DNA from: an uncultured Eubacteriales bacterium
GTDB taxonomy: Bacteria; Bacillota; Clostridia; Oscillospirales; UBA644
NCBI GenBank assembly: GCA_934438175.1
Contig: CAKSBH010000003.1
Location: 107,511-171,510 of the forward strand
Length of the DNA stretch: 64,000 nt
Direction of reading: 5' to 3'
This document shows positions 1 through 52,219 of the stretch, piece after piece (position 1 is the stretch's first letter; the number at the start of each line of letters is the position of its first letter). The notes under the pieces were generated by a model. The model was not told the origin of the DNA, made no database searches, and saw nothing but the letters and a program-made list of their open reading frames with translations. The position numbers and the translations under genes are program-made.

Positions 1-1496
1 CAGACCTGCGGCGGGACATGTACGGTGCCATTCAGCGGTTCTCCTTTGCCAACATCGACCGTTTCAGCACCGGCTCGCTCGTTACACGTCTGACCAATGA
101 CGTAACCCAGGTTCAGAACTTTGTCAATATGATTCTCCGCATGGCGCTCCGCGCGCCGGGCATGCTGATTGCCGCCCTGATTATGGCAATCACCATGCAG
201 CCGAAGTTGTCCACCGTCTTTGCCGTCAGCATTCCTCTGATGCTGATTGCCGTCGGAGCAATCATCTCGCAGGGATTTCCCCGCTTTTCCAGAATGCAGA
301 CCAAGATGGACGCCCTGAACTCCCGCGTGCAGGAAAACGTCACCAATGTGCGTGTGGTCAAAAGCTTTGTAAGAGAAGATTACGAAATTGACAAGTTCCG
401 CGCCGCAAACGCCGATCTGAAAAAAAGCGGGATGTCCGCTATGCGCATTATGATTTTCATGTCTCCGGTCATCACCCTGTTCATGAACGCCACCGTCCTT
501 GTGGTTGTGTGGCTGGGCGGAGGCATTGTTCTGGACGGTGGAATGCCGGTGGGCGATCTTTCGGCGTTTCTCACCTATGTCACCCAGATTCTCTCCTCGC
601 TGATGATGGTTACCATGCTGCTGATGTTCTCCTCACGGGCACTGGCATCCGGACGGCGTATCGCCGAGGTTCTGGACGAAGTTCCAGATCTTTCCGACGA
701 AAACGCACGGGAGCCGGAACGGCATGTTGAAAACGGAGACATTGAATTCGACCACGTTTCTTTCCGCTATTACAAAAACAGCGACGACCTGGTTCTGGAT
801 GATATCTGCCTGAAGATTCCCGCACACGCAACCGTGGGAATCATCGGTTCTACCGGCTGCGGAAAGACCACATTGGTATCCCTGATCAGCCGGCTGTACG
901 ACGCAGACGAAGGATGCGTCCGGGTAGACGGCGTGGACGTCCGGGACTACTCCCTGAAAAATCTGCGCGACGGCGTAGGAGTTGTGTTGCAGAAGAACAC
1001 CCTTTTCTCCGGCACAATCGCAGAAAATCTGCGCTGGGGCGATGAAAACGCCTCTGACGAAGAGGTCCGGGATGCCGCCAAACGCGCCCAGGCAGACAAA
1101 TTTGTTTCTTCGTTCCCCCATGGCTATGACACCTTGCTGGAGCAGGGCGGAACCAACGTTTCCGGAGGACAGAAGCAGCGTCTCTGCATTGCCCGCGCGT
1201 TGCTCAAAAAGCCGAAAATCATCGTCCTGGATGACTCCACATCGGCAGTCGACACGGCGACCGAAGCGCAGATCCGCCGCGCTTTCCGGGAAGAGCTGCA
1301 GGATTCCACCAAGATCATCATTGCCCAGCGCATCTCATCGGTTATGGATGCCGATCTCATTGTCGTTATGAACGACGGCAGAATTACCGGAACAGGCACC
1401 CACGATGAACTTTTGAAGAACAATACGGAATATCAGGAAATCTACGATTCCCAGATGGATCGGAAGGAGGCGGGCACGGATGGCAAGATCGCTTGA
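1..1496 (+). CDS. ABC exporter half-transporter (fused permease/ATPase); N-terminus cut by window edge
   Basis: Frame is open from nt 3 (DLRRDMYGAIQRF...), so the ATG at 18 is internal. TMD motif GSLVTRLTNDV, Walker A GSTGCGKTT, signature VSGGQKQR, Walker B IIVLDDSTSAVD. Confidence 0.9.
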   Translation, partial: DLRRDMYGAIQRFSFANIDRFSTGSLVTRLTNDVTQVQNFVNMILRMALRAPGMLIAALIMAITMQPKLSTVFAVSIPLMLIAVGAIISQGFPRFSRMQTKMDALNSRVQENVTNVRVVKSFVREDYEIDKFRAANADLKKSGMSAMRIMIFMSPVITLFMNATVLVVVWLGGGIVLDGGMPVGDLSAFLTYVTQILSSLMMVTMLLMFSSRALASGRRIAEVLDEVPDLSDENAREPERHVENGDIEFDHVSFRYYKNSDDLVLDDICLKIPAHATVGIIGSTGCGKTTLVSLISRLYDADEGCVRVDGVDVRDYSLKNLRDGVGVVLQKNTLFSGTIAENLRWGDENASDEEVRDAAKRAQADKFVSSFPHGYDTLLEQGGTNVSGGQKQRLCIARALLKKPKIIVLDDSTSAVDTATEAQIRRAFREELQDSTKIIIAQRISSVMDADLIVVMNDGRITGTGTHDELLKNNTEYQEIYDSQMDRKEAGTDGKIA

Positions 1497-15205: not shown

Positions 15206-17209
15206 TCATTCGGTCACTTTCTTGCGGACCACAAAAGCAACTGCGGCAAGAGCCATTGCGCCGACCAGGAAAATCGCAACCGTCGAGATATCGTTCGTAC
15301 CCGGGTTCCCCGGCAACGTAATCTGACCGGCAAGCGTTTCCGTTTCAAAGTCGAAGATCAGATCCAGCGTCCAGACCGCAGCATCCTTCTGTTTCTGCAC
15401 ATATTCCTTGGACAGCGTAATTTTCAGGTTATCGCCGTCTTCCGAAACGGTATAGTTGGCAACATCAAGAACCTGCCCGTTTACCCGGATCTCTTTCAGC
15501 ACATTCGCCGAATGCTTGATGAGGAAGACCACATCGACAACCGGCGTTTCCGTGTCAAAGACGTAGGAGGATTTTCCGTCCGCAAACGCAAGCGGGGCAC
15601 CGGATTTCACATGAATGCGACCCTGCGGCTGTGCATATCTCTCATCCACCACACCGCTGAGTTCGCTGGTAATGTAATCCATCAGCGCCTCATCCAGAGG
15701 AATTCCCGTATCAAACTGCTCTTTTGCGCTGGCAAAGGCATAGTACGTATCACCGCCTGCGGCACAGAAATTGTTGGTGACAACCGCATACGTGGCTTCT
15801 GCATCAAACGGTTTGCCGTTGATGCTGCGGATGACTACGCGATTGATGGAAGCGGGTCCGTAATAGGTAGAGCCGGGATACGTTTCCGCATTGGCATCGT
15901 ACGCAAGGTCCTTGTAAATGTCAAACTCAATGCCGGAAACCTGCGGGAAACCGCCGATTGATGTCGGGGTACAATAGGTAGATGCCTCCAGCGCTTCCAG
16001 CAATTCGGTGCCTTTCACATAGACGACCGCCACCGTGTTCCCGAACGGAAGAACCGTATTGATGTCTTTCTTGGTAATGTCGCCGGCATGAATCCACGCC
16101 CGGATACCGCCGCCGTTTGTCAGGGCAACCACGTTCTCCGCGGCAACATGGATGCTGTCCGGATTCTTCAGAATCGTCCAGCGCATGGAATCCGTAATCA
16201 GGTCGCCCAGATTGGTTTCCGAGTCACGGTTTCCGTTCGGCGCTTTGTCGCCGTTCAGTTCCACTTTGCTCTCGGCAAATTTTTTGCCGTATTCCGCATT
16301 GATGCGGTCAATGATCTGCTGTGCTCTGGCAGCGACCGCTTCGTCCTTTACGGATTCTGCCGTAACCGGAAGAAGTTCGTTTTTCTCAATCTGCTTCGTC
16401 GCGGCATCAATCACGATCAAACCGATCTTGCTGAACGCCGTACCCGTAGACTGAATCTTTTCGCCGTTCTCGCCCTGGGTCATCTCCGTATGAGAGTGAC
16501 CGTCAATGATCATGTCAATTCCCTCAACATGGGCGGCAAGATCCAGCGAACGGTTCGGTTCGGATTCGGCATCCACACCGAGATGCGCCAGACAGAAAAT
16601 CAGATCGGCGCCTTCGTTTTTCAATTCCTGCACCTGTGTCGCGGCGCAGGCATACATTTCTTCACCTGCCAGGAATTTCAGCCCCTTGATCAGAGCCGGA
16701 TTGGCTTTGGTCTGGGATTCCGGCGTTTCCATGCCGAAGAAACCGATTTTCACACCATCGATCTCTTTGATGGCACGCGCGTCAAAGATCGGGGTACCGT
16801 CTTCTTTGAGAACGTCGGCACAAAGGACCTTGAACGTCGCTTCGTTCATGTTGCTGACCAACTGCTCATAGCCATAGTCAAACTCATGGTTGCCAATGGT
16901 GGCAAAATCATAGCCGACCAGGTTCATCATGAGGATGGCATCAAGCCCCTTGGTCACACTGACATACGGTTTTCCCTGACTGTAGTCGCCGGCATCGACA
17001 AGCAGGACTTTCGCGCCCTTGCTCTCGTATTCCGCCTTGACGGCAGCCATGACCGCATAGCCCTCAATGTTGCCGTGCACGTCATTGGAATGGAGAATGA
17101 CGATTTTCCCGTCAAATTCGCCGTTCGCAAAAGCCGTTGCCGGCAGAAGCACGAGGACCAGGACGAGTGCAATCAGAATTGCACCGACGCGTTGAAACAT
17201 TTTTTTCAT
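15206..17209 (-). CDS. surface-anchored bifunctional metallophosphatase / 5'-nucleotidase
   Basis: Signal peptide. Motifs NDVHG, GDYSQG, GNHEFD and a 5'-nucleotidase C-terminal domain. C-terminal ...LPGNPGTND + hydrophobic helix + RKK tail. Confidence 0.88.
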   Translation of the reverse strand: MKKMFQRVGAILIALVLVLVLLPATAFANGEFDGKIVILHSNDVHGNIEGYAVMAAVKAEYESKGAKVLLVDAGDYSQGKPYVSVTKGLDAILMMNLVGYDFATIGNHEFDYGYEQLVSNMNEATFKVLCADVLKEDGTPIFDARAIKEIDGVKIGFFGMETPESQTKANPALIKGLKFLAGEEMYACAATQVQELKNEGADLIFCLAHLGVDAESEPNRSLDLAAHVEGIDMIIDGHSHTEMTQGENGEKIQSTGTAFSKIGLIVIDAATKQIEKNELLPVTAESVKDEAVAARAQQIIDRINAEYGKKFAESKVELNGDKAPNGNRDSETNLGDLITDSMRWTILKNPDSIHVAAENVVALTNGGGIRAWIHAGDITKKDINTVLPFGNTVAVVYVKGTELLEALEASTYCTPTSIGGFPQVSGIEFDIYKDLAYDANAETYPGSTYYGPASINRVVIRSINGKPFDAEATYAVVTNNFCAAGGDTYYAFASAKEQFDTGIPLDEALMDYITSELSGVVDERYAQPQGRIHVKSGAPLAFADGKSSYVFDTETPVVDVVFLIKHSANVLKEIRVNGQVLDVANYTVSEDGDNLKITLSKEYVQKQKDAAVWTLDLIFDFETETLAGQITLPGNPGTNDISTVAIFLVGAMALAAVAFVVRKKVTE

Positions 17210-42252: not shown

Positions 42253-42357
42253 ATGAAAATCATGATTTCGGTATTTCTTGTCTGCGGCGTAATTGCCCTG
42301 AATCTTGGACTCCGGCATTTATGCCGGTTGTATTTGCAGGCAACATCCGGGAAATAA
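42253..42357 (+). CDS. candidate 34-aa hydrophobic micropeptide (MKIMISVFLVCGVIALNLGLRHLCRLYLQATSGK)
   Basis: ATG 8 nt after SD GGAGGA. One predicted TM. Fills the HMA-ABC intergenic gap. Below the track cut-off. Confidence 0.4.
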   Translation: MKIMISVFLVCGVIALNLGLRHLCRLYLQATSGK

Positions 42358-42385
42358 AAATTATCGGTCAACACGGAGGAACGTT

Positions 42386-43087
42386 ATGCCCATTGTAAAA
42401 TTTCAAAATGTCAGCCGCATCTACACAAGCGGCGACCATGAACTGAAGGCGCTGGACGATGTAAATCTGACGCTTGATGAAGGAAAATTCGTAGTCGTTC
42501 TCGGGCCGTCCGGTGCCGGGAAAAGCACCCTGCTGAATCTGCTCGGAGGGCTGGACACCCCCACATCCGGAAAAATCATCGTGGACGGATGGGATATTTC
42601 CACACTGTCCAAAAACGAGTTTGCCGATTACCGGGCAGAGACCGTCGGATTTGTTTTTCAGTTCTACAATTTGATTCCGACACTGACGGTGCACGAAAAC
42701 GTCGCGCTTGTCAAGGAAATCGCAAAGAACTCCCTTTCGGCGACAAAGATGCTTCAGGAAGTCGGACTTGCCGACCATGCGAAAAACTTTCCGTCCGAGC
42801 TTTCGGGCGGAGAACAACAGCGTGTATCCATTGCACGCGCACTTGCGAAAAACCCGAAGATTCTGCTTTGTGACGAGCCGACCGGCGCACTGGATTCCGC
42901 AACCGGCGTTCTTGTTCTGAAGCTTCTTCTCAAAATGGCGCGGGAGTACGGAAAAACCATTGTCATCGTAACGCATAACCAAAACATTGCCAAAATGGCA
43001 GACACGGTGATCCGCGTGAAAAACGGAAGGATTGTTTCGATGGAAAATCAGACGAATCCGGCTTCCGCCGATGACATCGACTGGTAG
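42386..43087 (+). CDS. ABC transporter ATP-binding protein (MacB/LolD/FtsE-like)
   Basis: Start moved to MPIVKFQNVSRIY. Walker A GPSGAGKST, signature LSGGEQQR, Walker B LLCDEPTGALD. Confidence 0.92.
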   Translation: MPIVKFQNVSRIYTSGDHELKALDDVNLTLDEGKFVVVLGPSGAGKSTLLNLLGGLDTPTSGKIIVDGWDISTLSKNEFADYRAETVGFVFQFYNLIPTLTVHENVALVKEIAKNSLSATKMLQEVGLADHAKNFPSELSGGEQQRVSIARALAKNPKILLCDEPTGALDSATGVLVLKLLLKMAREYGKTIVIVTHNQNIAKMADTVIRVKNGRIVSMENQTNPASADDIDW

Positions 43088-43098
43088 AGGAGCAAACT

Positions 43099-45378
43099 AT
43101 GTTGGGAAAGAAAATGCTCCGCACGGCATGGTGCTATAAAGCGCAGTTCATTTCCATGGTCCTCATGGTCATTCTCGGCGTCGGAATGTTTGTGGGCTTC
43201 CATATGGAATGGGTAAGCATTGAGCACAATATGTTCTCGTTTTTTGATGACTGTCACTTTGCCGATTACCGTCTTGTGAACGAAAAGGGATATTCCGAAG
43301 AGGATCTTAAAAAAATCGAAGAAATCGACGGGATCCGTGCAGCAGCCCGTTTCCTCACGGTCAACGCGGATGTCAAGGACCGGGACGGAGACAGTGTCGC
43401 GCTTGCCGTTACCACCAATTCGGATGTGTCTTCCTTTGTCCGGATCCGCGGCGACGCCTATGACCCGAACAGCACGGACGGCATCTGGCTTTCGGATCAG
43501 TATGCCGAAAAAAACGGGATTTCAATCGGAGACACGCTGACGTTTGTTTTTCGCAACACGGAAATCACCGGGAAGGTTCGTGGATTGATCAAGGCCGCAG
43601 AACAGATGATCTGCGTGCGCGACAAGACTCAGCTCATGCCGGATTTTGAAACCCACGGCTTTGCCTACATCTCCCCTGCTCTCTACGAAAAAGCGACAGG
43701 CTTCGGCTACTATCCGCAGATTCATGTGATTTCAGACCTGGACAAAGACACTTTTTCCGAAAAAGCCAACCGGGCACTCGGTCAGACCACCATTCTTCTC
43801 ACCAAAGAAGAGTCCCTGTCCTATGCACAGGCGGAAGGAGAAGTCAGCGAAGGAAAAGCCATGGGAAGCACTCTTCCCGCCCTCTTTCTTCTGATCGGTC
43901 TGCTGACCATGGTGACCACCATGCATCGTCTGGCCGCAAAGGAGAAAACACAGATCGGCACGCTGAAAGCACTGGGATTTCACGACCGTAGAATTGCCCT
44001 GCATTACACGTCCTTTGCCTTCCTGGTGGCAATCATCGGGACAGCGCTCGGCATCGGAATGGGCTACGGCGTTGCCTGGTTTATTATGAATCCGGACGGA
44101 ATGATGGGAACTTACATGGACTTACCGGAGTGGGCACTGGTCTTTCCGTGGTTCTGTGTGGTTGCCGTTGTTCTGATTGTCGGAGTACTTACACTCATCG
44201 GATATCTGTCCGTGCGGCGGATGCTTGCCGGTACGGCAGCAGATTCCCTCCGTCCCTATACGCCCAAAAAGATGAAGCCGATGCTGGTGGAACGTACCAA
44301 GCTCTTTCACATGCTTCCGTTCGGTATGCGTTGGAATCTCCGGGACATCGTGCGGCACAAAGCCAGAACCGCCATGAGCATGCTCGGAATCATCGGATGC
44401 ACGATTCTCATTCTTGCCTCCTTCGGCATGAAAGATACGATGAATGCGTTTCTGCAGATGTACTACGGCAACGGGCTGAACTATTCCTCCCGCATTTTCC
44501 TCTCCGGAACGGCAACCGAAGAAGATCGCCTTGAGATTCTTGACCGGTACAACGGCGACTTCAGCAGCTCCGTCAGCGTACAGATCGAAGGAAAAACCGT
44601 TTCGCTTGATATTTACGGCATTACGCATGACCGAATCCGCATCATGGATCAAAATGCGAAAAAAATCGAAATCGGCGACGATGGCGCCTATATCTGCATG
44701 CGTCTTTCGGAAGAGTTCGGGCTGAACCCCGGAGACACCTTCTCGGTCAGTCCCTGTGGAACAGATGCCGTCTATTCCATGAAGGTTACCGGAATTTTCC
44801 GCAGCGTATCGGAAAACATCGTTCTTTCGGAAACCTATGCCGATTCTCTGGGAATCCCCCATACGGTCGACTCGGTTTATACCGATACGCCCAAAAACGA
44901 AATTCTGCTGTCGGACGCAATCCAGTCGGTGCAGTCCAAACAGATGATTATGGATTCCTTTGAGGCGTTTCTTTCCATTATGGACACGATGATCTACCTG
45001 CTTGTCGGCGGTGCCATGCTTCTCGGCATCATCGTTCTTTACAACCTCGGCACCATGAGTTACACCGAGCGGTACCGTGAAATGGCAACGCTGAAAGTTG
45101 TCGGCTTCCGCGACAAAAAGATCGGACGGCTTCTTGCCGGTCAGAATCTCGCCCTTTCGGTTGCCGGCATCCTGATCGGAATTCCGATTGGAGCCCTGAC
45201 GCTTTCTTACTTACTGAAAACACTGGCGTCGGAATATGAGATGAAAATGGCGATTGAGCCGCTCTCTTATCTTCTTACCGTCCTTATGACCCTGGGAATG
45301 TCGCTTCTCGTCAGCCTGATGGTGGCGCGGAAAAACAAAAAGATCGACATGGTGGAAGCGCTGAAGGGGCAGGAATAA
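43099..45378 (+). CDS. ABC transporter permease with duplicated FtsX/MacB-type modules
   Basis: 759 aa. Two TM1-large extracytoplasmic domain-TM2-4 units. Confidence 0.88.
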   Translation: MLGKKMLRTAWCYKAQFISMVLMVILGVGMFVGFHMEWVSIEHNMFSFFDDCHFADYRLVNEKGYSEEDLKKIEEIDGIRAAARFLTVNADVKDRDGDSVALAVTTNSDVSSFVRIRGDAYDPNSTDGIWLSDQYAEKNGISIGDTLTFVFRNTEITGKVRGLIKAAEQMICVRDKTQLMPDFETHGFAYISPALYEKATGFGYYPQIHVISDLDKDTFSEKANRALGQTTILLTKEESLSYAQAEGEVSEGKAMGSTLPALFLLIGLLTMVTTMHRLAAKEKTQIGTLKALGFHDRRIALHYTSFAFLVAIIGTALGIGMGYGVAWFIMNPDGMMGTYMDLPEWALVFPWFCVVAVVLIVGVLTLIGYLSVRRMLAGTAADSLRPYTPKKMKPMLVERTKLFHMLPFGMRWNLRDIVRHKARTAMSMLGIIGCTILILASFGMKDTMNAFLQMYYGNGLNYSSRIFLSGTATEEDRLEILDRYNGDFSSSVSVQIEGKTVSLDIYGITHDRIRIMDQNAKKIEIGDDGAYICMRLSEEFGLNPGDTFSVSPCGTDAVYSMKVTGIFRSVSENIVLSETYADSLGIPHTVDSVYTDTPKNEILLSDAIQSVQSKQMIMDSFEAFLSIMDTMIYLLVGGAMLLGIIVLYNLGTMSYTERYREMATLKVVGFRDKKIGRLLAGQNLALSVAGILIGIPIGALTLSYLLKTLASEYEMKMAIEPLSYLLTVLMTLGMSLLVSLMVARKNKKIDMVEALKGQE

Positions 45379-47284: not shown

Positions 47285-48130
47285 TTATTTCTTCAAAGCG
47301 TCCAGAGTCTTCTGTTTCCCGCCGTAAAAGCCCATCGGCTCCACATGTACGGAAAGAATCGAAACCAGGTGCGTCCCCTGTTTTTCGTTGAAATCCTGCA
47401 GGTACGGCAGATGCTGGAAGTAATTGGCATCCACGTCGCCGCTGTCTACCACATTGTTCGGCTGTACATAATCGGTGAATTCCAGAATCTCCAGCGTAAT
47501 GCCTTTTTTCGCCAGAATGTTCTTTGCAATCTTAAGAATGTCGGCATGCGGTGTGGGAGATGCGGCAACCGAGATCTTCTGACCGTTCAGCGCGGCATAG
47601 TCAACAGAAGAGTCAAAGCCGTCCCCGGCATCCTTGACCACGCTAACCACCGATCCGTTGTAGGTCGAAGCAATATAATCGGCAACTTCCTTGCTGGACA
47701 AAGCCGCCTTCAGCGCCAGCACCAACGGGTCATTTTCCCTTCCCTGCTTCACAGCCAGGATGTTGCTGTATTCCGAAGCGGAGCCCTCAATAAAAAGAGA
47801 ATCGTTCACGGGATTCAGCCCGGCAGCGATGGCATAGTTGGAGTTGATTACGGCAAAATCCACACTGCTCAGACTGTTGGGAATCTGTGCTGCCTCAATC
47901 TCGACAAAATTCAGATGATACGGATTTTCCACAATATCATGGATGGTCGCCGTAATACCGGCACCGTCCTTCAGCTTGATATAGCCCTGATCCTGCAAAA
48001 GAAGAAGTGCACGGGCTTCGTTCGTCGTATCCGACGGAACGGCCACAAGAAGAGAAGTATCCTGCGAGCAGCCGGCAAACACGCCGACGGCAAGAACCAG
48101 CAGGCAAACAAATGCAATCAGTTTTTTCAT
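47285..48130 (-). CDS. metQ: MetQ/NlpA-family methionine-binding lipoprotein
   Basis: Lipobox VFAGC. NlpA family core. First gene of metQNI. Confidence 0.9.
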   Translation of the reverse strand: MKKLIAFVCLLVLAVGVFAGCSQDTSLLVAVPSDTTNEARALLLLQDQGYIKLKDGAGITATIHDIVENPYHLNFVEIEAAQIPNSLSSVDFAVINSNYAIAAGLNPVNDSLFIEGSASEYSNILAVKQGRENDPLVLALKAALSSKEVADYIASTYNGSVVSVVKDAGDGFDSSVDYAALNGQKISVAASPTPHADILKIAKNILAKKGITLEILEFTDYVQPNNVVDSGDVDANYFQHLPYLQDFNEKQGTHLVSILSVHVEPMGFYGGKQKTLDALKK

Positions 48131-48277
48131 AAGAATTCAACCTTTCTATTTTTCACATTTCTGTTATCGCAATTTCATTCACAAAAAACAACCGGGTCAC
48201 ATTCGTTCATGCCGGAAATTCACACGAAACAGCGTTTCCCATCCGATCTGCATAAAAAAATACCTCCAGACGATGAT

Positions 48278-48311
48278 AAAAAAAGAGCCGGATGCTCTCA
48301 GAGCATTCCGG
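48278..48311 (-). terminator. intrinsic terminator inside the metQNI leader
   Basis: Minus strand CCGGAAUGCUC-UGA-GAGCAUCCGG (10 bp, one bulged A), then CUC + U7. About 145 nt upstream of the metQ start. Confidence 0.8.
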
Positions 48312-48348
48312 TCAGACAAAAACAAAACACCGATAACCGGCATTGCCG

Positions 48349-48456
48349 TTACCGCACTGTATTTTTATGGAAACCGACCGGAAGACAGAAATCCTGGCGC
48401 ATCATCATGCGGCACATCTGCGGCATTCCGCCGAACCCACGGCACATCTTCTTCAT
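48349..48456 (-). CDS. 35-codon Met/Cys-rich leader ORF (MKKMCRGFGGMPQMCRMMMRQDFCLPVGFHKNTVR)
   Basis: ATG 8 nt after AAAGGAGG. 7 Met (3 consecutive) and 3 Cys in 35 codons. Lies between a consensus promoter and the leader terminator. Below the track cut-off. Confidence 0.6.
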   Translation of the reverse strand: MKKMCRGFGGMPQMCRMMMRQDFCLPVGFHKNTVR

Positions 48457-48500
48457 CGGTCGTTCCTCCTTTTCATCGTTTTCTTTGGTAGATTGCTGCA

Positions 48501-48529
48501 ATCATACCATATCCGCAAACATTTGTCAA
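48501..48529 (-). promoter_or_regulatory. promoter of the metQNI leader
   Basis: Minus strand TTGACA-17 nt-TATGAT. Confidence 0.75.
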
Positions 48530-48787
48530 GAGATTTTTTCGGTTTCTTTTCAAAAAAAGAATTTTATCCTCTATGTGCGAAAGGGAAAAGTCCCGGCAAC
48601 ACCCCTGAAATGTGCGTAAGGTTTTTACCTTTTTGGGAACGAAAAACGGGAAAGAAAAAATCCGGATTCCTTGTAGCAAATCGGTCTTCGTTTCCAATCC
48701 ATATGCACAGTGGGAGTGAGCGTGCCGATTGCTCCTCAAAAAGATTGCCTTTTCATGACGTTTTCCGGGCAATATCTTATCGGCAAC

Positions 48788-48816: not shown

Positions 48817-48952
48817 TTCAGGGATCAGGAAAAACAAAACAGTGCCCGAAAACCGCTTTTATCTGTCGGCAACAAAATTCATACCAAACCTTTTTCTGTA
48901 CAAAGCAACTTAAAGGGTGACCGGTCAAAAAAAACGATGGAAGGAGATTCCG

Positions 48953-50563
48953 ATGAACACCGAAGAAATCGAGGAGGGTCTGATTGAAACAACCTATCTC
49001 TTCTGCTACAGGAAAATCGGCAATTCACAGGATGCCGAAGATGTCGCACAGGACATTCTGGTTGAGGCAATCAAGGCAATCCGCAGCGGCAAATCCTTTG
49101 TAAGCTTCTATTCCTGGTTTTGGGCAATGGCAAAAAACCGGGTGAACATGTTTTTCCGGATGAAGCGCTTTCATGCGGTTGAACTTGATCGGGTAGAAGA
49201 TGTTCTGGAATCGGAGGAATCCGTGGAAAACGAACTGCTCAAAAGCGAAGAGATCCGCAAACTCAATCATTCCGTATCACGGCTTTCTCACCTTCTCCGT
49301 CAGGTCGTCATTCTGCATTATGTAAGGGGAATGAAGATTCCCGACATCGCGCAGGCCCTCGGTGTTTCCGAAGGAACGGTCAAAACCAGACTTCACAACG
49401 CAAAAAAAGAAATAAGGACAGGTATGAACGAAATGAAAGACATCTTGGGAAGATCTTCTTATGCACCGGCATATCTCGAGCTCATGGGCAACGGCCATGC
49501 CCCCTATTATTGGAACGCAGTCAATGATCTGATGACAAAACAGATCTTTGTTGCCTGTGCGAACCAGGCAAAAACAGTACGGGAAATCGCAGACGAAATC
49601 GGGGTTGCCCCGGTATATTTTGAGGAAAAACTGAATTATCTGCTGCAGAACCGGTTTATCAAGGAAACTTCCAAAGGCAGATATCTGACGGATTTCCTGA
49701 TTTATCCCCACCAGGTATGGGTGGATTTTCGGGCAAAACAGGACGAAATCTTCGATTCGCTCGGAGCGGAAGTCACGGAGATTATCCGGGAATGCGAACA
49801 GGAAATCCGGTCCCTTGGATTTTACGGAAACGATCTTCCGTCCGGCACCCTTCTGTGGCTTCTGTATTATTTCGCCGCCGTTGCCATGCAGGATAAACTG
49901 CTTGCGCTCGGCGCGGCGGAATGGGAAGGAAAGGTTCCCGCCGACAACGGTAAGGATTACCGCTTTTTCGGCTGGGTGGGATATCCGAACGAACAGATTA
50001 CGGAAACCGGCAAGAACAACCGTGTCTCCTGGAGCAATCTGCATGTGCATTTCAAAACATCGGGCTACCATGATGTTTGCCATGCCAATCTTTTTCAGCA
50101 TTCCCCGTTTCCCAATCGGGATTCCATTCTCAACGAAACAAACGCAGATCTGTTTATGCGCATTTTTGACAATCCGTTTCTTACGTTTACCCCCAACGAG
50201 GAGGAATCCGTTGCCATTCTGATTCAGCACGGATACCTGAGTAAAAGGAACGGCGGGATCTATCCGACCATGCCGATCATGACCTACGAACAGAAACAAC
50301 AGATCTGCGAGATTCTGGGAAAAGCGACCGGGCCGCTTTGCGCAAAATATTGGCAACTCATCTGCGATGCAGCCCAAACCATCGTTCTTCCGGTTGTCCG
50401 CAAGGATTTGCTGGAAGAATATGCGCACGGTGCACTTTCGCTCGCATTCTGGACGCTTCCTTATACGTTTTATTACGGAATGAACGCCGAAGAAAAGCCG
50501 CTTGACCTTCCGGAAAACGATGCGGCAACCTCAAAGGCAATCTGTATTTATATCAAAAAATAA
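48953..50563 (+). CDS. sigma-70 family (ECF-like) RNA polymerase sigma factor with a ~370-aa C-terminal extension
   Basis: Start moved to MNTEEIEEG (SD GGAAGGAG). Region 2 (DAEDVAQDILVEAIKA) and region 4 HTH (IPDIAQALGVSEGTVKTRLHNAKKEI), then a long non-sigma domain containing a second HTH-like segment (TVREIADEIGVAP). Confidence 0.8.
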   Translation: MNTEEIEEGLIETTYLFCYRKIGNSQDAEDVAQDILVEAIKAIRSGKSFVSFYSWFWAMAKNRVNMFFRMKRFHAVELDRVEDVLESEESVENELLKSEEIRKLNHSVSRLSHLLRQVVILHYVRGMKIPDIAQALGVSEGTVKTRLHNAKKEIRTGMNEMKDILGRSSYAPAYLELMGNGHAPYYWNAVNDLMTKQIFVACANQAKTVREIADEIGVAPVYFEEKLNYLLQNRFIKETSKGRYLTDFLIYPHQVWVDFRAKQDEIFDSLGAEVTEIIRECEQEIRSLGFYGNDLPSGTLLWLLYYFAAVAMQDKLLALGAAEWEGKVPADNGKDYRFFGWVGYPNEQITETGKNNRVSWSNLHVHFKTSGYHDVCHANLFQHSPFPNRDSILNETNADLFMRIFDNPFLTFTPNEEESVAILIQHGYLSKRNGGIYPTMPIMTYEQKQQICEILGKATGPLCAKYWQLICDAAQTIVLPVVRKDLLEEYAHGALSLAFWTLPYTFYYGMNAEEKPLDLPENDAATSKAICIYIKK

Positions 50564-51704: not shown

Positions 51705-51778
51705 TGGAGGCGCCACCCGGAATCGGACCGGGGATGAAGGTTTTGCAGACCTCTGCCTTACCGCTTGGCTATGGCGCC
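51705..51778 (-). tRNA. tRNA-Cys (GCA) with an atypical T-loop
   Basis: GGCGCCATAGCCAAGCGGTAAGGCAGAGGTCTGCAAAACCTTCATCCCCGGTCCGATTCCGGGTGGCGCCTCCA. The cloverleaf folds, with discriminator U73 and encoded CCA. The T-loop is TCCGATT instead of TTCGA/TTCAA. Confidence 0.8.
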
Positions 51779-51812
51779 TTATGTCGCACATACAAAAGTA
51801 TATGCTTTATAT

Positions 51813-51848
51813 ATAAAAAAAATGAACGCAGGGTTCATTCTTTTTTTT
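51813..51848. terminator. weak A/T-rich hairpin with flanking A8/T8 between tRNA-Gly and tRNA-Cys
   Basis: AATGAAC-GCAGG-GTTCATT (7 bp). Confidence 0.4.
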
Positions 51849-51851
51849 AAG

Positions 51852-51927
51852 TGGAGCGGTATACGGGGCTCGAACCCGCTACCTCAACCTTGGCAAGGTT
51901 GCGCTCTACCAGATGAGCTAATACCGC
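51852..51927 (-). tRNA. tRNA-Gly (GCC)
   Basis: Cloverleaf with anticodon loop TTGCCAA, T-loop GGTTCGAGC and encoded CCA. Confidence 0.9.
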
Positions 51928-51933
51928 ATAAAA

Positions 51934-52009
51934 TGGTGCCTCCGGTCGGAATCGAACCAACGACACGGGGATTTTCAGTCCCCTGCTCTACCAACTGAGC
52001 TACAGAGGC
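51934..52009 (-). tRNA. tRNA-Phe (GAA)
   Basis: GCCTCTGTAGCTCAGTTGGTAGAGC..., anticodon loop CTGAAAA, encoded CCA. Confidence 0.93.
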
Positions 52010-52015
52010 AAAAAA

Positions 52016-52093
52016 TGGCGACTCGGATGGGGTTCGAACCCACGACCTCCGCCGTGACAGGGCGGCGTTCTAAACCAGCTGAACTACCGAGCC
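52016..52093 (-). tRNA. tRNA-Asp (GTC)
   Basis: GGCTCGGTAGTTCAGCTGG..., anticodon loop CTGTCAC, encoded CCA. Confidence 0.93.
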
Positions 52094-52143
52094 ATATTCT
52101 CTGAAAGCTTGTGGTCAAGCACATTTCATTCTGCCGGGCAAAT

Positions 52144-52219
52144 TGGTGGGAGTTACAGGACTCGAACCTGTGACCCTCTGCTTGTAAGGCAGATGCTCTC
52201 CCAGCTGAGCTAAACTCCC
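52144..52219 (-). tRNA. tRNA-Val (TAC)
   Basis: GGGAGTTTAGCTCAGCTGGGAGAGC..., anticodon loop CTTACAA, encoded CCA. Confidence 0.93.

Follow-up and report, generated by a model that had tools for sequence, protein, structure and literature searches.

A putative methionine-codon leader-peptide attenuator of the metQNI importer operon in Clostridia and a conserved second upstream reading frame

Methionine genes of Firmicutes are thought to be controlled by S-box riboswitches, Met T-boxes or LysR-type regulators. Classical attenuators of amino-acid operons include trpL, hisL, leuL, thrL, pheL and ilvL/ivbL of Proteobacteria, the his leader of some Bacilli and ilvB's upstream open reading frame (uORF) in Corynebacterium. 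In these systems a mini-open reading frame (ORF) near the promoter, led by a Shine-Dalgarno sequence (SD) and containing codons for the cognate amino acid, is combined with a terminator, a mutually exclusive antiterminator and an anti-antiterminator in front of an operon for that amino acid. In the surveys consulted, the amino-acid attenuators are limited to His, Leu, Thr, Trp, Phe, Ile/Val and, more recently, Cys (PMC3766115, PMC1262725, PMC8632094, PMC11109978), and methionine genes are described as being under S-box or T-box control (PMC3766115, PMC1262725, PMC2965389, PMC8632094, PMC11109978). Among the Cys cases are the leaders of cys operons in Mycobacterium and Propionibacterium (PMC1262725) and the cysS uORFC-8-2 of Rhodobacterales (PMC8632094). 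Here we analyzed a stretch of 64,000 nucleotides (nt) from an uncultured Eubacteriales bacterium (contig CAKSBH010000003.1, positions 107,511 to 171,510; hereafter the window), in which a short ORF rich in Met and Cys codons precedes metQNI, an operon for a methionine importer. The sequence evidence leads us to read this leader, with a probability of about 0.8, as a ribosome-mediated (leader-peptide) transcription attenuator of metQNI whose sensor codons are Met with interleaved Cys. Methionine would then be a new amino-acid specificity for a known type of attenuation. No methionine leader peptide for metQ or metN was found in the literature searched, of which the coverage was incomplete, so that an earlier description is possible.

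All parts of the leader lie on the minus strand. A sigma-70-type promoter (48501..48529) consists of TTGACA (48529-48524) and TATGAT (48506-48501) separated by 17 nt, with 11 of 12 matches and a TG preceding the -10 hexamer. The leader SD AAAGGAGG (48465..48472) is followed 8 nt further on by the ATG at 48456, which is 44 nt past the -10 hexamer. The ORF that starts here (48349..48456; 35 codons and a stop) encodes the peptide MKKMCRGFGGMPQMCRMMMRQDFCLPVGFHKNTVR and contains 7 Met and 3 Cys codons, including AUG-AUG-AUG at 48408-48400; it is a called gene in the metagenome-assembled genome (MAG) GCA_964318985.1. The candidate sensor codons comprise the cluster M11-P-Q-M-C-R-M-M-M19 (48400..48426) and a Met4-Cys5 pair close to the start (48447-48442). 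The promoter, the SD, the 35-codon ORF, its AUG triplet and the Met and Cys counts were claimed in the original prediction and were all found where it had placed them. The terminator that it saw before metQ is also there, as a hairpin CCGGAAUGCUC/GAGCAUCCGG at 48311-48288 (-15.3 kcal/mol) followed by CUC and then U7 at 48284-48278. The same applies to the complementarity between UUCCGGUCGG (48383-48374) and CUGACCGGAA (48315-48306), proposed as a possible antiterminator, which forms a duplex of -19.5 kcal/mol. At the level of sequence, the locus has the defining features of an attenuator: a promoter-proximal SD-led ORF, a cluster of cognate codons, an intrinsic terminator before the first gene and a mutually exclusive antiterminator, positioned so that stalling at the sensor codons would permit it and a ribosome close to the stop codon would block it.

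No hallmark of an S-box or T-box had been seen in the leader, and covariance models gave the same answer, with no match to a SAM-family (SAM, S-adenosylmethionine) or T-box (RF00230) model at E<=10 in 48100-48650. At the gathering threshold, Rfam recognized only five tRNAs in the window and no riboswitch or T-box, and it recognized no family in 20 leader-bearing metQ loci and no riboswitch or T-box in 20 leaderless ones. In E-value mode, the sub-threshold matches in the window leader and in a relative (L023) were weak and terminator-like (rimP leader, 23 bits against 47; sbrA, 22 against 45) and were discarded.

Single promoter-like and terminator-like matches say little by themselves. The window contains 4 promoter-like sites where shuffled sequence gives 2.9, and 2 terminator-like sites where it gives 3.7; since neither is enriched over shuffles, a comparative test was needed. 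We used 80 loci from Clostridia MAGs and isolates whose MetQ proteins are 62-70% identical to that of the window. In the 600 nt upstream of metQ in 80 regions (79 loci and the window), the maximal number of Met codons in any stop-free run of 12 codons was bimodal, with 5-8 in 33 regions and 1-4 in the remainder, and the reverse strand of the same regions mostly reached 1-3. Once three more loci (L038, L068 and L080) are included, the leader is carried by 34 of the 80 metQ loci. Thirty-one leaders (30 loci and the window) were analyzed in detail, and each of them has an ORF of 24-46 codons with 7-11 Met and 1-7 Cys, usually starting with MKK, behind an AGGAG-type SD at a spacing of 7-10 nt from the ATG. 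A TTGACA-16..18-TAnnnT promoter ends 24-50 nt before the leader ATG in 30 of the 31. The family terminator, with a stem of 9-14 base pairs (bp) and a U tract, lies 20-45 nt past the leader stop, and metQ begins 40-215 nt further on.

The family was also approached from the peptide. A profile built from 27 leader peptides retrieved 124 protein clusters of 29-71 residues from a collection of 5.8 billion proteins, with the consensus MKK-x5-MMMEMCMC(S/R)MCM-x4-FSDVLSVI; these clusters are named at most 'hypothetical protein' and are without any Pfam hit. The window peptide is among the matches (P0113, E=7.6e-4) and is a divergent member. Four look-ups that took the peptide, and not MetQ, as their starting point all placed it directly upstream of metQ-metN-metI or, once, of metN-metI-metQ, which indicates that the leader tracks the operon and not one given gene. 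Scanning metagenomes for DNA that encodes the pattern MCMCxMCM yielded 120 stretches, about 35 of which are bacterial leaders with MetQ, MetN or MetI homologues downstream wherever the contig is long enough; the remaining two thirds or so are eukaryotic microsatellites and were discarded. Neither the peptide-first nor the DNA-first searches found the leader ahead of genes other than those of a met transporter. As judged from these comparisons, the leader is a conserved, unannotated family of gut and rumen Clostridia that spans several families of the class. The idea of looking at orthologous loci came with the original prediction, and the upstream regions of metQ/metN in many Clostridia do keep a short ORF with clustered in-frame AUGs, a terminator and a covarying antiterminator.

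The Met-rich frame bears the marks of translation. Among the 31 leader ORFs, 235 of 252 non-start ATGs (93%) are in frame, and 22% of the codons are Met and 9.3% Cys, compared with about 0.6% each in the adjacent metQ genes. Given that the ORFs had been picked for in-frame Met, we guarded against circularity by searching for SD-led ATG or GTG starts without regard to frame. In 26 of 28 loci the cluster frame was the sole frame with such starts, and two loci were ambiguous; in no locus were the starts exclusively out of frame, where chance would place one third in the cluster frame. The ratio of TGT to TGC among the leader Cys codons (22:77) equals that in metQ (10:37), so selection on Cys apparently acted on the codon family and not on a fixed RNA sequence. 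Members of the family differ freely in how many Met codons they have, in how these are arranged and in how long the N-terminal segment is. Taken at the level of sequence, the frame bias, the SD-led starts, the Cys codon ratio and this free variation are marks of a leader peptide rather than of an aptamer.

The RNA of the leader can be divided into four regions. Region 1 (48442..48470) covers the SD, the start codon and codons 1-5, with the Met4-Cys5 pair inside it. Region 2 (UGUCUUCCGGUCGGU, 48373..48387, codons C24-G28) is the 5' arm of the antiterminator, and regions 3 and 4 (48278..48315) begin with CUGACCGGAAUGCU (48315-48302), which overlaps the 5' arm of the terminator. Region 2 has two alternative partners, namely region 1 or the terminator arm and loop; by pairing with it, region 1 would serve as an anti-antiterminator that sequesters the leader SD and AUG. 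Across the family region 2, whose typical sequence UUUCCGAUGUGCUUUCUGUC codes for the conserved F-S-D-V-L-S, is the 3' part of the leader ORF. Its antiterminator target extends over the 5' arm of the terminator, the loop and the first bases of the 3' arm (GGGAAGCUUCAUCGGAA), and the terminator loop AUCGG is conserved because region 2 pairs there. Most sensor codons fall into the loop that separates region 1 from region 2.

Both pairings of region 2 are supported across loci. Own-locus duplexes between regions 2 and 3 average -17.1 kcal/mol in the 31 leaders, against -13.9 kcal/mol for cross-locus combinations (permutation p<1e-4) and -12.2 +/- 3.8 kcal/mol for shuffles, and are on par with the mean terminator strength of -16.0 kcal/mol; a version of the test with a narrower target gave p=0.001. 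In a plain MAFFT alignment (A3), 86% of the cells of the 12 antiterminator pairs are paired and 9 of the 12 show two-sided changes. The covariation score is 0.331, compared with 0.231 in shuffled alignments (0 of 500 reached it) and at most 0.18 in slid controls. One of the pairs swaps U-A for C-G between a synonymous position of the Asp codon and the first base of the terminator loop. It should be noted that the diagonals were chosen after inspection of pair frequencies, which inflates the percentage paired but biases neither the permutation tests nor the numbers of two-sided changes. Own pairs of regions 1 and 2 average -20.2 kcal/mol against -16.2 kcal/mol across loci (p<0.0002; shuffles, -14.2 +/- 3.9 kcal/mol), and their column-wise covariation is weaker than that of the antiterminator. 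The family terminators have two-sided changes at 8 of 9 pairs. RNAalifold recovered just 5 terminator pairs from the plain MAFFT alignment of the leaders, and the helices were therefore assessed by permutation tests and explicit pair counts.

In most relatives, the Met/Cys core is itself a structured element. It is self-complementary, with AUGUGCAUG pairing with CAUGUGCAU, that is, identical M-C-M codons shifted by one base. The string M-C-M-C-S-M-C-M (AUGUGCAUGUGCAGCAUGUGCAUG; A3 columns 102-136, for example in L023 and L071) folds as a hairpin of 7-9 bp, which is absent from the window copy. This hairpin may be a pause signal, and it may be part of the reason why Cys is interleaved with Met.

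Based on these alternative pairings, the attenuator is proposed to work as follows. Transcription would start about 7 nt past the -10 hexamer, and a ribosome would load at the leader SD and AUG. With plentiful Met-tRNA (and Cys-tRNA), the ribosome would traverse the Met cluster and mask region 2 while regions 3 and 4 are being transcribed; the terminator (48311-48288 and the U tract) would then form and transcription would stop before metQ. With scarce Met-tRNA, the ribosome would stall in the AUG cluster (48426-48400), or at Met4/Cys5 within region 1, and would leave region 2 just beyond its footprint, free to pair with region 3 (48315-48302) and to allow read-through into metQNI. Region 1 would be freed by following ribosomes, by the stall at Met4/Cys5 or by steric exclusion. 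In untranslated RNA, 1:2 and 3:4 would both form, making termination with a sequestered leader SD the default state. A switch that is off when methionine is plentiful and on when it is scarce has a polarity that fits an importer. We infer from this architecture that stalling at Met codons is the signal, and likewise its timing relative to RNA polymerase and any role of the Cys codons; Cys-tRNA is probably sensed besides Met-tRNA.

Folding of the window RNA agrees with most of this scheme. The calculated duplexes are -23 to -24.7 kcal/mol for 1:2, -18.7 to -19.9 kcal/mol for 2:3 and -18.5 kcal/mol for 3:4. The unconstrained fold contains the 1:2 helix, a spacer hairpin and the terminator. When the AUG cluster is placed under a ribosome and region 1 is made unavailable, the terminator gives way to the antiterminator 48387-48373/48315-48302, which encloses the spacer hairpin; placing a ribosome at the stop codon yields the terminator. 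The alternation between terminator and antiterminator that had been suggested is hence reproduced, with the start region occupied in addition to the Met codons. The antiterminator arm lies at least about 12 nt past the last codon of the cluster. The spacer hairpin overlaps the leader stop codon (48331..48354, -11.0 kcal/mol) and sits in the antiterminator loop; it was part of the original prediction and is indeed present, but it is specific to the window and falls in a spacer that is variable across the family. Together, the folding, the Rfam searches and the orthologous upstream regions support the leader-peptide attenuator that was originally proposed.

Several points weigh against this interpretation. 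With a ribosome on the Met cluster alone, the window RNA keeps the more stable 1:2 helix, so that the model needs region 1 to be occupied, covered or sterically excluded. The distance from the end of region 2 to the stop codon is 21 nt in the window and 4-10 nt in most relatives, and a ribosome at the window stop codon may not cover region 2. The window terminator has CUC between the stem and the U tract. The window peptide, with 7 Met codons and no MCMC core, is a weak and divergent member of the family, and the window copy as a whole departs from most relatives in having fewer Met codons, no MCMC core, the 21-nt gap, the CUC and its own hairpin over the stop codon. Limitation of methionine would lower formylmethionyl-tRNA (fMet-tRNA) too, leading to less initiation at the leader and favoring termination. 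Finally, the Met/Cys core of the family is a conserved hairpin within a long helix, and an RNA that binds a ligand could be built in this way too.

This last point leads to the rival explanations. In a riboswitch-like RNA that binds Met, SAM or a related metabolite, the 1:2 helix would be P1, the AUGUGCAUG/CAUGUGCAU hairpin would belong to the aptamer and the ORF would be incidental. Such an RNA would account for a long helix around a highly conserved hairpin (90% paired and almost invariant) and for a 3' strand that competes for the 5' arm of the terminator, as in OFF riboswitches. It is very unlikely nevertheless, because essentially all members have an SD with an in-frame ATG, no member has an exclusively out-of-frame start, and 93% of the ATGs share one frame. 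The Met codon layout and the N-terminal length vary freely, unlike an aptamer core; Cys uses TGT and TGC at the genomic ratio; the window copy has lost the MCMC hairpin and retained Met codons; and no Rfam model matches. Translation could matter in another way if the nascent Met/Cys-rich peptide sensed free Met or SAM in the exit tunnel, in the manner of TnaC, SpeFL or CGS1, instead of hungry codons being read. The core MMMEMCMC(S/R)MCM and the C-terminal FSDVLS are kept at the amino-acid level in the 124 clusters, which speaks for such a sensor, but the conserved C-terminal residues are encoded where the RNA pairs with region 1 and with the arm and loop of the terminator, and the conservation of the core is largely forced because Met has one codon. 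The core motif is missing from the window peptide. A stall at the cluster would free the antiterminator, so that arrest induced by the ligand would turn the importer on when methionine is high, the reverse of the polarity needed. We consider this peptide-based sensing improbable.

The ORF might instead encode a functional small protein that is co-expressed with the transporter, for example a metal- or redox-binding peptide, with the hairpin being an ordinary partial terminator. Met/Cys-rich peptides can bind metals, and several assemblies list the ORF as a gene. On the other hand, a strong terminator separates the ORF from metQ in every member, its length and flanking residues show little conservation, those residues that are conserved track codon identity or RNA pairing, Pfam and NCBIfam contain no match, and the covarying antiterminator would have no role, making this explanation highly improbable. 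A short ORF and a terminator could also have come together in this window by chance, which would agree with the finding that promoter-like and terminator-like matches are individually as frequent in shuffled sequence; the likelihood of this is close to nil given the identical architecture, with covariation, in dozens of loci from several Clostridia families.

Read as an attenuator, the met leader has the same layout as the classical systems introduced above and differs from them in its Met (and Cys) sensor codons, its target, which is an uptake transporter, and its Clostridia hosts. It also differs in the use of its own SD and start codon as region 1 and in having most sensor codons between regions 1 and 2, in a loop within which they fold into a hairpin of their own. 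With the Cys-codon uORFs it would share the control of a sulfur-metabolism gene by ribosome stalling on sulfur amino-acid codons in a short uORF. Those uORFs have Cys runs only and occur in other phyla and ahead of other genes, and the mycobacterial ones have no terminator hairpin, whereas in the met leader Met is dominant (22% of codons) and Cys is interleaved. The S-box (SAM-I) and the Met T-box, the usual control of metNPQ or metQ in Firmicutes, act on the same genes with the same output of termination or antitermination in the 5' leader; the met leader has no SAM or T-box covariance match, and its signal would be read by a translating ribosome instead of by aptamer or tRNA binding. If the attenuator reading is true, gut and rumen Clostridia, including abundant uncultured Oscillospiraceae and Lachnospiraceae, read their methionine status through the ribosome, and at least 124 unannotated 'hypothetical' mini-proteins are accounted for. 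The family would also be a compact test case for a sensor of a single-codon amino acid that initiation needs too, and for a coding constraint (AUG-UGC-AUG) that doubles as RNA structure.

Four more distant loci (L098, L105, L156 and L188) carry a distinct Met/Cys-rich upstream ORF (...TVFSSMMCMCAMCMCYLSMSGGAL) before a MetQ/NLPA-like lipoprotein that is only 31-40% identical to the window MetQ. The sequences suggest that these ORFs are related leaders on more remote transporters.

Downstream of the window terminator lies a second uORF, MQIGWETLFRVNFRHERM (48197..48253, minus strand), with an SD GGAGG (48263..48267) and an ATG 9 nt on, which ends in CGA-AUG (48205-48200) and a UGA stop (48199-48197). 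The original prediction listed it with its GGAGG as a tiny ORF beside the leader; the ORF and its SD were confirmed, but it is not a mere aside, as it belongs to a conserved element that is more widespread than the leader. We call this element the RM-uORF. Neither its peptide nor the leader peptide has a match in Pfam or NCBIfam. An RM-uORF, defined by an SD-led frame with an invariant CGA-AUG, is present in 41 of the 80 metQ loci: 20 loci have both the leader and the RM-uORF, 14 the leader only, 21 the RM-uORF only and 25 neither. In 19 of the 31 leaders analyzed in detail (18 loci and the window), it begins just past the terminator, and in the 21 loci without a Met-rich leader it lies 57-146 nt upstream of metQ.

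All 41 RM-uORFs have an SD-led ORF in the frame of CGA-AUG, against none and two in the other two frames. The Met of CGA-AUG is most often codon 18, with a range of about 9 to 31, and the codon following AUG is UGA or UAA in 19 cases, UGC or UGU in 16 and another in 6. CGA is rare elsewhere, making up none of the 139 Arg codons of the 80 metQ genes and 4 of the 103 of six window genes. Of 15 further in-frame CGA codons in the RM-uORFs, 9 precede UGU (Cys), and a Cys codon in the context CGA-UGU or AUG-UGC is often present. The largest subgroup keeps the peptide LVRANFRFGRM despite synonymous variation: its Arg codons are AGA, CGT, CGA, AGG or CGG and its Leu, Val, Ala and Gly codons vary too, while the last Arg is always CGA. 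Across all 41, the invariant feature is CGA-AUG alone.

The RNA around the RM-uORF offered few further clues. A conserved hairpin with CGAAUGUG in the loop was considered and rejected as weak (own -2.8 against cross-locus -2.1 kcal/mol, p=0.011), half of the sequences having no hairpin. Pairing with the ribosome-binding site (RBS) of metQ is only marginally better than in cross-locus controls (p=0.018), and no consensus structure was found in the spacer downstream. A C-rich, G-poor tract like a Rho utilization (rut) site was not convincing either, the spacer being rich in A (46% A, 15% C, 12% G) and in most cases 25-60 nt long. A second CGAATGTG at window position 15500 lies within a long ORF and is consistent with chance.

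CGA is decoded inefficiently through I:A wobble, and stalled ribosomes can stabilize downstream mRNA in Firmicutes. Because of these two properties, we wondered whether the RM-uORF is a one-codon starvation sensor. CGA in the P site would make decoding of the next codon unusually sensitive to the supply of Met-tRNA or Cys-tRNA, and the output would need no terminator hairpin; the stalled ribosome could, for example, shield the mRNA against 5'-to-3' decay, block Rho or open the metQ RBS. The RM-uORF is probably a second translation-coupled checkpoint, acting on read-through transcripts. That the two elements form stacked, ribosome-read sensors of sulfur amino-acid charging, with the Met/Cys leader attenuator followed by the independent and wider-spread RM-uORF as the one-codon sensor, is a tentative idea that we regard as doubtful. 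Like the leaders of the ermC/ermB type, TnaC and SpeFL, the RM-uORF is a short SD-led uORF directly upstream of its gene with a precisely conserved, stall-prone site near its end; unlike them, it is not known to respond to a drug or ligand and has CGA-AUG, then a stop or Cys codon, as its sole invariant feature, and neither a conserved downstream hairpin nor a clear rut-like tract was found after it. It is possibly the more original element of the two, and the invariant rare-codon pair that it carries may hint at another, simpler sensor design.

In six loci below the Met-count threshold (L010, L005, L007, L051, L065 and L068), a family-like terminator (GACCGGGAACC...GGTTTCCGGTTT in one example) stands directly before the RM-uORF, and two of them (L005 and L007) encode ...TTGMCMCMRT...; these loci may have degenerate or Met-poor versions of the leader. 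The metQ loci without a Met-rich leader, among them many of the 21 with the RM-uORF only, often share a conserved GTATTGGACAAA -35 region (TGGACA-17-TATAAT) after a TATAG-N7-CTATA inverted repeat. This element was seen about 50-120 nt upstream of the RM-uORF in L011, L018, L008, L012, L020, L031, L035 and L043. A gene for a LysR-type regulator (C-terminus ...KANDRATMLNLMVGLNGYTLCSG...) ends just upstream in L006, L008, L011, L017, L018, L043, L046, L070 and L072. The sequences suggest MtaR/CmbR-like activation as an alternative control of the leaderless loci.

The operon behind the window leader consists, on the minus strand, of metQ for the methionine-binding lipoprotein (47285..48130; PF03180; SD GAAAGG at 48146-48141), metN for an ATP-binding cassette (ABC) ATPase with a NIL domain (47214-46201) and metI for the permease (46214-45495). 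Converging on its metI end is a MacB-like pair on the plus strand (42305-45378), composed of an ABC ATPase and a 759-residue permease of the FtsX family. On the other side, a divergent ORF of 548 residues (48917-50563, plus strand) starts about 390 nt from the leader promoter and contains sigma-70 region 2 and region 4 domains, resembling a sigma factor of the extracytoplasmic function (ECF) type fused to a long C-terminal part. Five clustered tRNA genes (51708-52219, minus strand) lie about 3 kb upstream of the leader promoter.

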